The translations under genes and the position numbers were made by a program. The notes beneath the pieces were generated by a model. That model was not told the DNA's origin, searched no databases, and saw nothing but the letters and a program-made list of their open reading frames with translations. A stretch of 64,000 nucleotides of DNA from an archaeon (lineage in GTDB: Archaea > Nanobdellota > Nanobdellia > Pacearchaeales > GW2011-AR1): positions 6,685-70,684 of the forward strand of contig DAOVXQ010000004.1 in NCBI GenBank assembly GCA_030636025.1, written 5' to 3'. The first letter of the stretch is position 1; every line of letters begins with the position of its first letter. Below, in pieces: positions 5,654 through 11,452 of this stretch.

Positions 5654-8101
5654 ATGATAAAAGTTAATTTTAATGCAATAGAGAAAAAATGGCAGAGGAA
5701 ATGGGCGGAGGGAAAAGTTTTTGAAGTTAAGGAAGATAAGAAAAAGAAGAAGAAGTTTTATGTTCTTGAAATGTTTCCTTATCCTTCTGGAGCTGGGTTG
5801 CATATGGGGCATGCTTTGAATTATTCTATTGGAGATATATTTGCCAGATTTAAGATAATGCAGGGATTTAATGTTCTGCATCCTATGGGTTTTGATTCAT
5901 TGGGTTTGCCTGCTGAAAATGCTGCTGTGAAGGCAGGAGAGCATCCAAAAAAATATACTGAAAAAGCAATTAAGAATTATGTTAAACAAATGAAAAATTT
6001 GGGATTAAGTTATGATTGGAGCAGAATGGTTTCAAGTCATCAACCAGAATATTATAAATGGGACCAGTGGATTTTTTTGAAAATGTTTGAAAAAGGCTTG
6101 GCTTATAAAAAAGAAAGTCCTGTTAATTGGTGTTCTAAGTGTAATAGTGTTCTTGCTAATGAACAAGTTCATGATGGAAAGTGCTGGAGGCATGAAGATA
6201 CTAATGTTGAAGTTAAACATCTTGTTCAGTGGTATTTGAAGATAACAGATTATGCAGAAGAGTTAGCAGATTTTAAGGGGTTAAGTGAATGGCCTGATTT
6301 GATTAAGAAACTTCAGAAAAATTGGATTGGTAAGAGTTATGGGGCTGAGATTTTGTTTGAGATAAATAATGAAAAATGGCCAATTTTTACAACAAGACCA
6401 GATACTTTATTTGGTGTTACATTTATGGTGGTAAGTGCTCAACATTCAAAACTTTTTGATTTAGTTATAGATGATAAGAAAAAAGATGTTGAAAAATTTG
6501 TTAAGAAATTAAGTTCTGTTAGTAAAGAAGATATTGATAAGCTGGATAAAGAAGGAGTTTTTACTGGAAGTTATGCTATTCATCCTTTAACTAAAGAAAA
6601 AATTCCTATTTATGCTGGTAATTTTGTTTTAGCTGATTATGGTAGTGGAATGGTTATGGCGGTTCCTGCTCATGACCAGAGAGATTTTGATTTTGCTAAA
6701 AAATATGGGATTGATATTAAGGAGGTAATAAGTGGGGGAGAGATTAAGAAGAATGCTTATACTGATAAGGGTAAATTAATTAATTCTGGAGAGTTTGATG
6801 GAATTGAAAGTGATGAAGCCAAGAAGAAGATAACTAAATTACTGAGAAAAAAGAAATTAGGTGGAGAAGTTATTAATTATAGATTAAGGGATTGGCTGGT
6901 TTCAAGACAGAGGTATTGGGGGGCTCCAATTCCAATTATTAATTGTGAGAAATGCGGTGAAGTTTCTGTTCCTGAAAAAGATTTACCTGTTGAATTGCCT
7001 GATAAGGTCAAATTTGGAAAAGGAAATCCTTTGGATAGTGCTGAAAAATGGAAAAAAGTTAAATGCCCTAAATGTGGTGGAGATGCAAAAAGAGAGACAG
7101 ATACTTTAGATACTTTTGTAAATTCATCTTGGTATTTTTTAAGATATTGTGATTCTCAAAATAATAAGAAAATTTTTGATTTAAAGAAAGTAGATTATTG
7201 GGCTCCTGTTGATTTTTATATTGGTGGAAAAGAGCATGCTTGTATGCATTTGATTTATTCAAGATTTTATACTAAATTTTTAAGAGATTTAGGTTTATTA
7301 AAAATAAGTGAGCCTGCTAAAAAATTGTTTAATCAGGGAATGTTACATGGGGAAGGAGGAGAAAAAATGTCTAAATCTAAGGGGAATATTGTTCTTCCTG
7401 AAACAATATCTAAAAAATATGGGATTGATACTGCAAGATTATTTTTAGTTTCTGTAGCAAGTCCTGATAAGGATATTGATTGGAGTGAGAAGGGCATTAA
7501 TGGTAGTTTAAAGTTTGTTAAAAAAGTTTTTGAATATTTTAATGATGTCAAAATTGGAAAATCAAGTGCAAGTAGTGAGAGTAAATTAAATAAAACAATT
7601 AAAGGTGTTACAGAAGATATTGAAAATTTGAAATATAATTTGGCGATTATTAAGTTAAGGCAGTTATTTGAAAATTTTAAAGAAGAAGAGAATAATGAAA
7701 CTCTTGAAAGTTTTTTGAAAATGTTAAGTATTTTTTGTCCACATATTGCTGAAGAATTGTGGGAGAAATTAGGAAATAATGGATTTATTAGTTTGAGTGA
7801 ATGGCCTAAATGTAATGAGAAAAAAATTAATAAAAAATTGGAGATGGCAGAACAAACTGTTGATAAAACTGTTAGTGATGTTATGAATATTTTGAAAATT
7901 GTTAGTGATAAGGGTGGGAAATTTGAGAAAGTTTATATTTATGTTATGCCTTTTGAAAAAGAGTATTTTGATGAAATTCTGATTGGTGAAAGGGTTGGAA
8001 AGGAAGTTAAGATTTTTTCTGTTCAGGATAAAGATAAGTATGACCCTGAGGGGATTGCCAAAAAGTCTAAGCCAGGAAAGCCAGGAATTTTTGTTGAATA
8101 G
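5654..8101 (+). CDS. leuS: leucyl-tRNA synthetase, bacterial-type
   Basis: FYVLEMFPYPSG, HMGH, FTTRPDT editing motif, KMSKS. Confidence 0.98.
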   Translation: MIKVNFNAIEKKWQRKWAEGKVFEVKEDKKKKKKFYVLEMFPYPSGAGLHMGHALNYSIGDIFARFKIMQGFNVLHPMGFDSLGLPAENAAVKAGEHPKKYTEKAIKNYVKQMKNLGLSYDWSRMVSSHQPEYYKWDQWIFLKMFEKGLAYKKESPVNWCSKCNSVLANEQVHDGKCWRHEDTNVEVKHLVQWYLKITDYAEELADFKGLSEWPDLIKKLQKNWIGKSYGAEILFEINNEKWPIFTTRPDTLFGVTFMVVSAQHSKLFDLVIDDKKKDVEKFVKKLSSVSKEDIDKLDKEGVFTGSYAIHPLTKEKIPIYAGNFVLADYGSGMVMAVPAHDQRDFDFAKKYGIDIKEVISGGEIKKNAYTDKGKLINSGEFDGIESDEAKKKITKLLRKKKLGGEVINYRLRDWLVSRQRYWGAPIPIINCEKCGEVSVPEKDLPVELPDKVKFGKGNPLDSAEKWKKVKCPKCGGDAKRETDTLDTFVNSSWYFLRYCDSQNNKKIFDLKKVDYWAPVDFYIGGKEHACMHLIYSRFYTKFLRDLGLLKISEPAKKLFNQGMLHGEGGEKMSKSKGNIVLPETISKKYGIDTARLFLVSVASPDKDIDWSEKGINGSLKFVKKVFEYFNDVKIGKSSASSESKLNKTIKGVTEDIENLKYNLAIIKLRQLFENFKEEENNETLESFLKMLSIFCPHIAEELWEKLGNNGFISLSEWPKCNEKKINKKLEMAEQTVDKTVSDVMNILKIVSDKGGKFEKVYIYVMPFEKEYFDEILIGERVGKEVKIFSVQDKDKYDPEGIAKKSKPGKPGIFVE

Positions 8102-8155
8102 TTCAATAGTGAAAATAAGGTAAGAGTTTATTAACTATTTTATTTTAAAAAATTA

Positions 8156-8542
8156 ATGGCAATTAGATTTTTGAGAAATTATTTAAATGAACAATTAGAA
8201 GCGATTTTAAAACATAAATGGATTTTGTCTGAAAAAGCAAATGGAGATGTTGGGTTGGGTGCTACATTAATGGACTTAGAAAAACAAAGTTTTTTTAAAA
8301 AATTTAGAGAAGAGTATTTTAAAAAAAATAATATCACTGCATTAGATAGTCAGGTTAGAGAAATCATTGGGGGAGATTCTTGTTTGGTTTTTAATTTTGA
8401 ATTAATTGCACATAATTATAAAACAAATAGTGATAGTGTTTTGGAAAAAGAATCTTTAAGATATTGTTTAGAAAATAAAGAAAACTGTAAACATAGAAGT
8501 GAAATTTCTAAGGGGATTTATGCTTGTAATAGGGATTTTTAA
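8156..8542 (+). CDS. DUF4032-like domain protein
   Basis: ILKHKWILSEKANGDVG resembles the DUF4032 HKWxxSE motif. Confidence 0.6.
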   Translation: MAIRFLRNYLNEQLEAILKHKWILSEKANGDVGLGATLMDLEKQSFFKKFREEYFKKNNITALDSQVREIIGGDSCLVFNFELIAHNYKTNSDSVLEKESLRYCLENKENCKHRSEISKGIYACNRDF

Positions 8543-8608
8543 TTACTCCAAAACAGCTTTAATCCGTCTCACTCCTGCACTAGAAGATTCTTCTTTTTTT
8601 ATTTTGAA
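8543..8608 (-). repeat. displaced duplicate of alaS 3' end (FKIKKEESSSAGVRRIKAVLE*)
   Basis: 62/66 nt identical to 9707-9772, with a 51-bp perfect core (8555-8605 = 9719-9769). Confidence 0.95.
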
Positions 8609-8659
8609 TATATTTTCTATATGGATAATTCTTTTAAAATCAAATTCTTTTAGAACTAA

Positions 8660-9706
8660 ATGAAATCAACTTATAAACATAAACAAGGGATATATGGAAC
8701 TGATTCTGAAAATTATATTTCAAGTTTATTTATGATGGCGAAAAATCCCAATGGCAGTCGAAGACCTGATTTAATTTCTTTAAATGGGAGATTTAATCCT
8801 AATTTTTCAGTAGAAGTTAAATCTGGAAAATCTGCTAAAGGAATTATGGTTGATTATCAATTACCTTATTCTATTACTAGTGAACAAGATTATATTAAAT
8901 TATTTGGAGAATTTCCTTTAGAAGGCTCTGGCGAATATTTGGGTGAAAACTGGGGGACAATTAATCCTTTTTTTAATAAAAAAGCAGTAGCTTATTATTA
9001 TAATGTTGTAGATAGGGTTGATGGATTGAAGGCAGGTGATATGGACAGACCTTTTTCTTCGGTTAGATTAAAATGGGGAGATCAGTTTATGGTTCCTGAT
9101 GATTTTGCCTTTTACAATTTTGCGTGTGCTTGTTCAAGAAGAACTGGAAATGATATACAAAAAATTATAGTTAGCTTAAAAGAACAAATGAAAGAAGATT
9201 GTTTAAATGAATGTCCTTTAGATTATACTGTCAGAAAAGGAGAAACTAATTCTTGGCAGAATATTATTGGAAGAGATATTTTATCTATTTTTAATAATGA
9301 TATGGGTTTAGCTACAAGATATGGAAAAGAAAGAATTGAAAGACTGGCAGAGGTTTATAATTTAGATGGATTAAAACGAATTCAAATTCATGGGCCTCAT
9401 AAAACTAAAATTTATATTTTAGCTAAACCCGAGCATCAGAGATTAATGAATGGGCAGTTGAGGAAAGTTGTTAAGGAAAGGAAAGAAATTTTAGAAGAAA
9501 TTGTACAGGAAAGAAAAGAAGCAGAAGAATTATTGAATAAAATAACTGTTAAGAATTATCCGGGATTATTTGAAGGGTTGAGGGATTTAGAAATTTTACA
9601 ATCTAATTTAACAAGGGAAGAAATTTTAAAACTTGAAAGATTATGTAATTGGATGGCAGAAGGTGAGGAAAAAATTGAGCTTGTTGAGGATAATATTCCT
9701 TTTTGA
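8660..9706 (+). CDS. putative PD-(D/E)XK nuclease-fold protein
   Basis: G..SE...RRPDLIS...SVEVKSG motif; acidic C-terminal EDNIPF tail. Confidence 0.65.
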   Translation: MKSTYKHKQGIYGTDSENYISSLFMMAKNPNGSRRPDLISLNGRFNPNFSVEVKSGKSAKGIMVDYQLPYSITSEQDYIKLFGEFPLEGSGEYLGENWGTINPFFNKKAVAYYYNVVDRVDGLKAGDMDRPFSSVRLKWGDQFMVPDDFAFYNFACACSRRTGNDIQKIIVSLKEQMKEDCLNECPLDYTVRKGETNSWQNIIGRDILSIFNNDMGLATRYGKERIERLAEVYNLDGLKRIQIHGPHKTKIYILAKPEHQRLMNGQLRKVVKERKEILEEIVQERKEAEELLNKITVKNYPGLFEGLRDLEILQSNLTREEILKLERLCNWMAEGEEKIELVEDNIPF

Positions 9707-11452
9707 TTATTCCAGAATAGCTTTAATCCGTCTCACTCCTGCACTAGAAGATTCTTCTTTTTTTATTTTAAAAGTTCCGAGTTCACTTGTGTTTTTTACA
9801 TGAGGGCCTGCACAAATTTCTTTAGAAAAATTTCCAATGCTGTAAACAGAAACATTTGCACCATATTTATCTTCAAAAACCCCCTGAGCATCTTCTTTTT
9901 TAGCTTCTTCAAAAGTTTTGTGTTCACAAATTATTGGTAGTTTTTCCTGAATTTTTTTATTAACTAAATCTTCAACTGCTTGTTTTTCTTCTGAAGTTAA
10001 TTTTCTATCAAAATTAAAATCAAATCTTAATCTTTCTGCAGTTATATTTGAACCTTTTTGAAATATGTCTGGTTTTTTAAGAACTTCTCTTAATGCCTGA
10101 TTTAATAAATGTGTTGCAGTATGAAGTTTTTTTGTTGATTCTGAATTATCTACTAATCCTGATTTAAATTTTCCTTCTGTTGCTGTTTTTGAAAGTTGTT
10201 GATGAATTTTTTGTTTTTTATAAAATTCTTTTTCATTTACTTTAATTGATTTTTCATTTGCTAATTCAGTTGTAATCTCTAATGGAAATCCATAAGATTG
10301 ATATAATAAAAATGCATCTTTTCCTGAAAGTGATTTTTTATTTTTTGTTAATTTATTAAATATTTTTATTCCTTGTTCAATTGTCTGATTAAATTTTTCT
10401 TCTTCTTTTTCTAATTCATTTAGAATTTTATCCTTATTTTTTTGCAGGTGTTTATAATCATCATATATTTTGAAAATAGGTTTTGCAATTTTTTTTGTGA
10501 AATTAGTTAAACCAAGATTTTTTCCATGCCTAATTGCTCTTCTGATTAATCTTCTTACAATATATCCTTGTTCTAAATTTCCAGGAGGAATCCCGTCTGC
10601 AATTATAAATACTGCAGATTTAATATGGTCGGCGATTATTCGCATCGTTTTTTCGTTTCCTTTGTATGATTTTTTTGATTTTTTTTCTATTTGTTTTATT
10701 ATTGGCTGCCAAATTTCAGTTAAATAATTGTCTTCTAAATTATTTAATACTGCGATGGTTCTTTCAACCCCCATTCCAGTATCAATGTTTTTTTGTTTTG
10801 CTGGATTATAATTTCCTATTTCATCTTTATTATACTGCATTAAAACATCATTCCATATTTCTACCCAGTTTTTATCTTCTGGATTAAATTCTTTGGGGGC
10901 GGGTTTGTTATTTGATTTCCAATAAAACATTTCTGTATCTGGACCACAAGGGCCGGTTTTTCCTGCAGGACCCCACCAATTATCTTCTTTTCCTAAGAAT
11001 GCAATTCTTTGTTTTGGGATTCCTAAAGATTCCCAGATTTTTGCAGATTCTTCATCTTTTTGAGCATCTTTATCTCCTTTGAAAACTGTTACTGCTAATT
11101 TTTCAATAGGAATTTCCAGAACCTTTGTTAAGAATTCAAATGAAAATTTAATTGCATCTTTTTTAAAATAATCTCCTAAAGACCAGTTGCCTAACATTTC
11201 AAAAAAAGTGTGGTGGGTAGTATTTCCTACTTCATTAATATCTCCTGTTCTAATGCATTTTTGAACATTTACTAATCTTTTTCCTTGAGGATGTTGCTGT
11301 CCAAGAAGATAAGGAACTAAGGGGTGCATTCCTGCTGTTGTAAACAAAACTGTTGGGTCGTTTTCAGGAATTAAACTAGTATTAGGTATTTCTTTATGGT
11401 CTTTAGACTTGAAAAATTCAATATATTTTTTTATTAATTGTTTTCTGTTCAT
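9707..11452 (-). CDS. alaS: alanyl-tRNA synthetase, short form lacking C-Ala
   Basis: LFTTAGM, HHTFFEMLGN, IDTGMGVER, HTATH/CAGPH editing motifs; 581 aa. Confidence 0.98.
   Translation of the reverse strand: MNRKQLIKKYIEFFKSKDHKEIPNTSLIPENDPTVLFTTAGMHPLVPYLLGQQHPQGKRLVNVQKCIRTGDINEVGNTTHHTFFEMLGNWSLGDYFKKDAIKFSFEFLTKVLEIPIEKLAVTVFKGDKDAQKDEESAKIWESLGIPKQRIAFLGKEDNWWGPAGKTGPCGPDTEMFYWKSNNKPAPKEFNPEDKNWVEIWNDVLMQYNKDEIGNYNPAKQKNIDTGMGVERTIAVLNNLEDNYLTEIWQPIIKQIEKKSKKSYKGNEKTMRIIADHIKSAVFIIADGIPPGNLEQGYIVRRLIRRAIRHGKNLGLTNFTKKIAKPIFKIYDDYKHLQKNKDKILNELEKEEEKFNQTIEQGIKIFNKLTKNKKSLSGKDAFLLYQSYGFPLEITTELANEKSIKVNEKEFYKKQKIHQQLSKTATEGKFKSGLVDNSESTKKLHTATHLLNQALREVLKKPDIFQKGSNITAERLRFDFNFDRKLTSEEKQAVEDLVNKKIQEKLPIICEHKTFEEAKKEDAQGVFEDKYGANVSVYSIGNFSKEICAGPHVKNTSELGTFKIKKEESSSAGVRRIKAILE

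Follow-up and report, generated by a model that had tools for sequence, protein, structure and literature searches.

A nuclease-fold gene between two alaS 3' ends in a DPANN archaeon: a candidate single-gene cassette placed by cargo-independent recombination

How does a gene for a nuclease-like protein come to lie between two copies of the last codons of a housekeeping synthetase gene, and what placed it there? The question is raised by a 64,000-nucleotide (nt) stretch of DNA, hereafter the window, from an archaeon of the Pacearchaeales (GTDB lineage Nanobdellota; Nanobdellia; Pacearchaeales; GW2011-AR1; GenBank assembly GCA_030636025.1, contig DAOVXQ010000004.1, positions 6,685 to 70,684), whose genome amounts to 733,590 base pairs (bp) in 17 contigs and is 86% complete. 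In the window, the alanyl-tRNA synthetase (AlaRS) gene alaS ends stop-to-stop against an open reading frame (ORF) of 348 codons, ORF348, beyond which lies a second, displaced copy of the alaS tail. An earlier interpretation made from the letters of the window (the sequence-only reading) explained this layout as the insertion of a nuclease gene that uses alaS as its own attachment site. Our analysis supports the insertion and points to a different agent: we propose, as the leading explanation and one whose chances of being right or wrong we consider evenly balanced, that ORF348 is the cargo of a single-gene cassette placed by cargo-independent recombination at the conserved alaS tail.

The two tails are direct repeats. 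A repeat search paired 8527-8608 with 9691-9772 over 82 nt at 89% identity; the significant portion is 70 nt at 94% (blastn-short, E 1.4e-25), and the window contains no other hit of this kind. On the minus strand, 8543-8608 encodes FKIKKEESSSAGVRRIKAVLE and a stop (the displaced tail), and 9707-9772 encodes FKIKKEESSSAGVRRIKAILE and a stop (the attached tail); the two 66-nt tails are identical at 62/66 positions, and their four differences (8546, 8551, 8554 and 8606) comprise three synonymous changes and one exchange of V and I. All four fall within the outer 15 of the 66 positions and flank a 51-nt identical core, a clustering whose hand-calculated, post hoc probability is C(15,4)/C(66,4) ~0.002. 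The arms beside the core are identical at 9/12 and 2/3 positions, so that the pair has the form of direct, attachment-site (att)-like repeats whose arms have diverged around an identical core; the tail pair is a mosaic. Similarity of the displaced copy to alaS stops at 8608/8609, and the 16 nt past the stop match at 11/16 positions only, a level that is not counted significant in AT-rich DNA. The alaS tails of other sampled species (40 from relatives) are identical to either window copy at no more than 53/66 positions, against 62/66 within the window pair, so the two copies have a specific relationship that conservation would not by itself explain. Between the repeats, the 1,164 bp contain the spacer and ORF348 only and encode no integrase or recombinase. 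The sequence-only reading had reported the 66-bp copies, their 51-bp core and four substitutions, and the stop-to-stop contacts on both sides (Table 1), and we reproduced all of these.

Table 1. Features of the interval between the convergent leuS and alaS genes in the window
Feature	Position	Strand	Remarks
LeuRS gene	5654..8101	+	Convergent partner of alaS; far border of the variable gap
ORF128	8156..8542	+	128 aa; orphan accessory gene; stop abuts the displaced alaS stop (8542/8543)
Displaced alaS tail	8543..8608	-	21 codons and stop; ends AVLE, stop; within no longer ORF
Identical core	8555..8605		51 nt, = 9719-9769; presumed crossover region
Spacer 5' of ORF348	8609..8659	+	51 nt; AT-rich TATA-like octamer at 8632-8639
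ORF348	8660..9706	+	348 aa; stop abuts the alaS stop at 9706/9707
alaS-attached tail, second repeat copy	9707..9772	-	Ends AILE, stop
alaS	9707..11452	-	581 aa, intact; Pfam tRNA-synt_2c E 4.8e-140, tRNA_SAD E 1.3e-17

A contig from a sister sample shows an allele in which the insert is missing. We aligned contigs of four runs, among them X2, another sample from the study of the probable source, with window positions 7300-10700, and parts of the locus without a listed contig in X2-X4 were not taken as absence. Contig 11 of X2 (393 nt, depth ~5) matches 9977-9753 with 0 differences, leaves out 1173 nt and then resumes in register at 8579-8421 (4 differences); this one contig, at depth ~5, is the ORF128/alaS junction without ORF348, an empty site. 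Presence and absence are polymorphic at one site between near-identical alaS alleles, 225 alaS nt being identical in X2. Together with the repeat, the empty junction in the sister sample supports the earlier proposal that an insertion regenerated the alaS 3' end and left a displaced tail behind. Variants of ORF348 at 91-94% identity are present in X2 and X4. As a separate observation, contig 13 of X2 (621 nt) matches ORF348 at ~93% over 9175-9708, loses the match at the ORF348/alaS boundary (9708) and continues with 85 unlike letters, and a close ORF348 variant may lie there beside a different or far more divergent flank. Contigs of X2 (depth 24), X3 (depth 10) and X4 (depth 5) also join 8609 to 10665 through 18 other letters, for which the window has no match even with 3 mismatches allowed; this join may reflect a rearranged relative of alaS or a spurious match of short length.

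The same scar surrounds unrelated cargo in other genomes. Genomes of the genus and the order were searched for a second tail with AlaRS or its last 79 aa as the query, and of the 31 other genomes in which the AlaRS C terminus had at least two matches we checked 30 (G104 was left out). In 24 of those 30 the second match is weak and falls in ORFs of 72-734 aa, which we took for candidate paralogous editing domains (AlaX- or ThrRS-like). Genome G008 holds a convergent 356-aa RelA/SpoT-like gene (Pfam 1.5e-17; PADLOC PDC-S33 6e-114; phrog_4773 5e-94) ahead of a displaced tail of ~240 nt, of which the last 66 nt are 60/66 identical and the upstream ~170 nt far more divergent, with a 33-nt insertion. 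In G368 the cargo is a toxin-antitoxin pair of HepT (E 4.5e-30) and an MNT nucleotidyltransferase (PADLOC PDC-S09 2.8e-27), and beyond the displaced tail, ~125 nt long, come DUF1003 and LeuRS. In G281 the site is occupied by a 438-aa gene whose matches to P-loop NTPases and an ArsR-type helix-turn-helix are weak and below cut-off, and the displaced tail (~165 nt) has one internal stop; in G269 a 52-nt palindromic element separates two alaS tails with identical peptides and many synonymous differences. Two further genomes, G131 and G337, carry a second alaS tail at a contig end. All displaced tails finish at the alaS stop, their distal boundary is different in each, and their lengths range from about 50 to 240 nt between genomes; the inserts of G008, G281 and G368 encode no recombinase. 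The window and these four genomes with a cargo thus share the anchor and differ in cargo and repeat length, and defence-family matches (PDC-S33 in G008, PDC-S09 in G368) occur among the same-site cargos elsewhere. With alaS tails bracketing four unrelated cargos as well, the idea of alaS as an attachment site used by the nuclease itself is not supported.

The palindromic element of G269 occurs twice, in inverted orientation and at 52-80 nt, on contig C12 of that genome (locus L143, 1-190 and 756-915). One copy is the element between the two alaS tails; the other lies between two 55/55 identical copies of another gene's 3' end, stop included, and no tRNA was found in the region of the palindrome at L143.

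Because the scar surrounds cargos unable to cut or join DNA, and because the resolved inserts are without a recombinase, we propose that insertion does not depend on the cargo and that host recombination probably drives it. Incoming DNA with an alaS 3' fragment would recombine with the resident alaS tail; in the window, a 1,164-bp unit (the spacer, ORF348 and one copy of the alaS tail) would have recombined into the last 66 nt of alaS, regenerating an intact alaS and pushing one tail copy outward as a noncoding relic. Alternative haplotypes downstream of alaS would in this way stack in the slot between leuS and alaS. Two routes could lead there: a Campbell-type single crossover between the resident tail and circular or looped DNA that carries an alaS 3' fragment and the donor's downstream DNA, or homology-facilitated illegitimate recombination, in which alaS provides the anchor and the illegitimate join falls within the resident tail. 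We lean toward the Campbell-type route, since the core and edge mosaic of the window and the tail of G008, diverged upstream and near-identical at its end, both fit a crossover inside the duplicated segment better. Both the route and the identity of the resident side are what we infer from these patterns.

Several observations weigh against this proposal. Over nine positions (9744-9752) the empty allele of X2 differs from both window tails at 7/9; by hand translation all the changes are synonymous and keep E-S-S-S, with two serine codon-family switches, and a patch recoded in this manner implies that the window arrangement neither descends directly from the empty allele nor gave rise to it by simple excision. 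Import of a recombination tract could account for the patch, as could recoding of a nuclease target. The window tails are 94% identical to each other and at most 80% identical to those of any sampled species, where a donor tail from another genus should diverge more; this closeness would require a near-relative donor, later homogenisation of the core or duplication of the tail in situ. The association of ORF348 with alaS persists across 27-49% protein identity and could mean targeted homing in place of passive residence, the star-like ORF348 tree fits one arrival or many, and two tyrosine recombinase genes elsewhere in the genome could allow site-specific recombination in trans. Finally, among the contigs listed for the probable source run, none bridges 8584-8664, the junction of tail and spacer.

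The sequence-only reading had further described ORF348 as a nuclease-fold protein with PD...EVK motifs; the fold is borne out by structure prediction and the motif, as PD...ExK, by an alignment in which it is invariant in 13/13 sequences. An AlphaFold model of the protein (pLDDT 81, pTM 0.84) was compared with 48,161 chains by VIA-align, and all eight chains with Z >= 5 are PD-(D/E)XK enzymes; the values are moderate (NhoI 6.8, Hje/Hjc 6.0, I-Ssp6803I 5.9, PvuII 5.8, Eco15I-N 5.6, RecU-like 5.2), and the model has the alpha-beta-beta-beta-alpha-beta core of that fold. G13, D15, E17, P36, D37, E52, K54 and many more columns are invariant across the 13 aligned sequences. The putative catalytic residues are E17, D37, E52 and K54, in the order E (helix 1), PD, ExK, with E52 and K54 on strand 48-57 of the model. 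We therefore accept that ORF348 is predicted to adopt the PD-(D/E)XK nuclease fold, with ~200 additional residues and an E...PD...ExK site like that of Hjc, and consider it most likely a metal-dependent DNA endonuclease. It resembles Hjc/Hje, NhoI, PvuII and I-Ssp6803I in core fold (Z 5.8-6.8 over 109-151 aligned residues) and motif order, and differs from these enzymes in its ~200 extra residues, which form helical insertions, a long C-terminal helix and beta hairpins, and in an acidic [IV]PF end.

Sequence and fold searches beyond these comparisons place ORF348 in a family without a name. In a 90%-clustered collection it has 12 relatives, the best at 92% and the remainder at 40-58% identity, two of which are named (both 'hypothetical protein', from Nanoarchaeota and Woesearchaeota records), and a 50%-clustered library holds 109 cluster representatives of the family, all told a family of DPANN archaea. 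Foldseek returned no match at E <= 1e-3 for the model against the Protein Data Bank (PDB) and viral models, the PDB E values all exceeding 0.1; the best Pfam matches, DUF4252 (E 0.006) and VRR_NUC (E 0.17), are both below cut-off; nothing significant was found in NCBIfam, PADLOC, PHROG or PDB sequences, a PDB profile search giving chance-level matches only. PADLOC thus lists no known or candidate defence family for it, and a scan of viral contigs found no relative. A protein atlas pointed only weakly (score 0.77) towards HinP1I- and PvuII-like clusters and hypothetical proteins of viruses. A homodimer prediction with two copies scored 0.00 against a mark of 0.42, which weighs neither way on dimerisation. 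The TATA-like octamer of the spacer lies 21 nt before the ORF348 ATG and, by its letters, may be the promoter.

The acidic-Pro-Phe tail to which the earlier interpretation drew attention is a family trait. ORF348 ends in EDNIPF, acidic residues followed by [IV]PF close 9/13 aligned family members, and three relatives (P0002, L003, L014) terminate in DDIPF. The tip of the bacterial single-stranded DNA-binding protein (SSB) consists of acidic residues followed by IPF, and the end of ORF348 is like it, in a likeness drawn from sequence, although here the motif sits on an archaeal nuclease and not on an OB-fold protein. We suggest that this peptide probably docks ORF348 on a partner protein. Since ORF348 shares its site with defence-type and selfish genes, is patchy in distribution, decays and has a fold like that of restriction enzymes and resolvases, it is probably a defence-type or selfish nuclease, and cargo rather than integrase.

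ORF348 is an accessory gene. A search with the single protein did not find it in 24 genus-mates and 16 other genomes of the order; with a family profile it appears in 21/400 other order genomes and 13/153 genera, its own counted, and in 0/20 genus-mates (partly the same genomes as the 24). Some homologs are decayed, two copies having internal stops and two appearing as split matches. For genomic position we pooled 14 homolog loci from a genome collection, 25 from the order search and 26 from metagenomes; after dropping loci that were exact duplicates or whose flank downstream was <250 nt, and leaving out L097 as a probable duplicate of L014, our own tally comprises 42 informative loci including the window. 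AlaRS is convergent within 200 nt downstream at 13/42 and lies beyond one intervening gene at 3 more (L003, L006, L014), so that the expected preference for alaS ends is real. The downstream neighbour is SerRS at 4 loci (3 convergent), a convergent thermosome gene at 3, plus one at 592 nt, a DHH phosphoesterase at 4 loci of one genus, and various other genes at the remaining loci.

The history behind this preference can be read in two ways. The alaS-associated homologs span 27-49% protein identity, and the ORF348 tree (27 rows, with 13/24 inner branches open) is a near-star with AlaRS-adjacent copies on both sides of the midpoint root; AlaRS adjacency requires 5 changes on it against a shuffled mean of 5.6, no clustering beyond chance. 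The tree fits ancient synteny with losses and repeated arrival alike. There are no flanking repeats around the 14 genome-collection loci scanned and no second alaS tail in 39 loci (the 14 and the 25 from the order search), and these negatives lend no support to the supposition that the nuclease is its own integration agent; for the 26 metagenome loci the only query was full-length AlaRS, which short tails would escape. Among the homologs, some stand stop-to-stop with SerRS (L002, L011, L104) and others with the thermosome gene (L004, L007, L081). L002 and L011 share a conserved topoisomerase-metallophosphoesterase-ORF348-SerRS synteny, and L004 and L007 a conserved ORF348-thermosome-CBS synteny.

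The competitor that survives best, though we hold it rather unlikely, makes ORF348 a free-standing homing endonuclease that cuts the alaS 3' end of alleles lacking it, whereupon repair from an occupied allele copies the gene in; the tail duplication would then reflect one-ended repair finished by end joining near 9772/9773 = 8608/8609. Free-standing homing endonuclease genes of phages spread by intronless homing, and ORF348 is like them in lying beside a conserved essential gene, in its presence/absence polymorphism between near-identical alaS alleles, in its patchy distribution and in its decayed copies. The fold agrees as well, being similar to Hjc, PvuII and the PD-(D/E)XK homing endonuclease I-Ssp6803I (Z 5.9), as does the tail-to-tail placement against conserved essential genes (AlaRS at 13/42 loci, convergent SerRS and thermosome at 3 each). 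Moreover, 7 synonymous changes in 9 nt of the core, against 225 identical flanking nt, would fit a target recoded to resist cleavage. Unlike phage homing genes, however, the alaS scar also surrounds cargos that could not have cut DNA (the RelA/SpoT-like gene, HepT/MNT, the 52-nt palindrome), and the ORF348 family is conserved over its full length, including the C-terminal motif that resembles a partner-docking peptide. The homolog loci themselves lack flanking repeats (14 scanned) and a second alaS tail (39 scanned). The synteny of leuS, ORF348 and alaS is common to several genera, for which vertical descent would give the same result, and AlaRS protein identity profiles against 40 loci are without a detectable mosaic, at the protein level, the relatives being too distant for a nucleotide test.

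A broader possibility is one that we regard as quite unlikely: the alaS tail would be the shared handle of an integrase-free cassette exchange in DPANN archaea, integron-like but run by homology, with ORF348 a homing-type gene and the X2 patch an escape variant. If this were true, small units, each with its copy of the synthetase gene's last codons, would keep defence genes, toxin-antitoxin pairs and selfish genes in circulation, and ORF348 would further its own spread through cleavage at the conserved end of alaS.

Less probable still is a non-autonomous mini-element moved in trans by a tyrosine recombinase, for which the alaS tail would be attB, the element's copy attP and the 51 nt the att core. 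Integrative elements target gene 3' ends and restore them, by Campbell-type integration or with duplication of the att site, and our locus is like them in its direct 3'-end repeats and intact target gene; its identical core and diverged arms are the classic attL/attR picture, with an element-side arm that supplies a working replacement for the last alaS codons, and the site has been used repeatedly in several genomes. The window genome (G000) has two PF00589 genes of 273 and 296 aa (C7:1721-2200, locus L141, and C2:44152-44628, locus L142), but an archaeon is expected to have at least one tyrosine recombinase, the chromosome-dimer resolvase XerA, and one of the two is presumably that enzyme. 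Unlike att elements, the alaS insert of 1,164 bp has no integrase, nor is there one in or beside any resolved insert; the cargos are single genes or a 52-nt palindrome; and the repeats, ~50 to ~240 nt long overall, include tails of 66, ~125, ~165 and ~240 nt that share neither a motif nor a distal boundary.

We give little credence to a reversed polarity, in which ORF348 is an old, vertically inherited resident and ORF128 with its alaS tail the newcomer, brought in by unequal recombination with an ORF128/alaS haplotype. The position of ORF348 beside alaS in the leuS/alaS gap is widespread in the family, the AlaRS-adjacent copies fall on both sides of the tree's midpoint root, ORF128 is an orphan and the ORF128/alaS haplotype is present in the population, all as this account would have it; against it stands the absence of ORF348 from the sampled genus-mates (0/24 and 0/20), and it departs from the cassette proposal in polarity only, with an identical mechanism. 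An assembly chimera that joined an ORF128/alaS strain to an ORF348/alaS strain through the shared alaS tail is highly improbable: the empty allele and the 91-94% ORF348 variants do co-occur in sister samples, and in the probable source run the k=31 contigs are interrupted at 8584, 9740 and 9748, as expected at a 51-nt repeat, and leave the tail/spacer junction unbridged among those listed, but the graph path from the tail core into spacer 8606-8659 requires real reads that hold the junction, depth in that run is continuous over 8554-8781 (17.6 to 20.8), the 51-nt core is shorter than ordinary reads, and the same architecture recurs in four independently assembled genomes.

Returning to the cassette proposal, displacement of this kind is known elsewhere. 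Rhs and contact-dependent inhibition (CDI) toxin tips and the effector-immunity arrays of the Vibrio cholerae type VI secretion system (T6SS) use a conserved stretch to anchor incoming DNA, and the older 3' piece is displaced downstream and kept as an orphan, repeated events building arrays (PMC5361080). The alaS site is like those described there in that a new module arrives beside a conserved gene and the old 3' piece is pushed downstream. In contrast to those systems, a housekeeping synthetase gene, through its last 20 to 80 codons, serves here as the anchor and not a polymorphic toxin, the relic is short and noncoding, the cargo is unrelated to the anchor and the host is a DPANN archaeon. 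Searches of the literature on archaeal free-standing homing endonucleases and on DPANN integrated elements, at the level of listings and abstract openings, showed nothing on alaS-tail insertions. Gene-end-anchored cassette insertion with displaced 3' relics is known in kind, and for this lineage and this gene those searches turned up no published case.

DPANN genomes are tiny and their gain and loss of genes are little understood, and capture of cassettes at the alaS end would offer a simple and testable route of gene flux. The cassettes seen so far comprise a nuclease, a RelA/SpoT-like candidate defence gene, a toxin-antitoxin pair and an NTPase, and displaced alaS tails could mark new accessory and defence genes in metagenomes. 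We also consider the ORF348 family a candidate new archaeal DNA-targeting enzyme.

The setting of the insertion is itself changeable. LeuRS and AlaRS are convergent in 29 loci of the genus, separated by gaps of 41 nt (L031, L033) to ~1400 nt that hold differing small genes, often one for a protein of ~80 aa with a PLDc_N domain; the convergent leuS/alaS gap is a variable slot in this DPANN family. ORF128, which the sequence-only reading called DUF4032-like, keeps that label as a sub-threshold resemblance only (E 0.015; 15.6 bits, where the cut-off is 23.8), all its Pfam matches being of that rank, and it has weak partial matches in 7/400 order genomes and 0/20 genus-mates. As ORF128 is an orphan accessory gene, the earlier suggestion of successive insertions at one site is plausible.

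Other features of the gap and its bordering genes vary among relatives. A gene for a DUF1003 membrane protein (124-142 aa) is frequent in the leuS/alaS gap (L003, L014, L062, L067, L137, L138), just upstream of ORF348 homologs or beside displaced alaS tails. At L014 (1013-5029) LeuRS is a single 1338-aa ORF with two large in-frame insertions relative to the 815-aa LeuRS of the window, to which tblastn aligns it in pieces (1-238, 232-368 and 365-815) that lie ~1135 and ~410 nt apart. In G005:C1, G041:C7 and G053:C26 the alaS matches are split ~270-345 nt apart inside one frame of 697-711 aa, and L099 and L100 show a similar split, which suggests an in-frame insertion near AlaRS residue 200-210 in several relatives.

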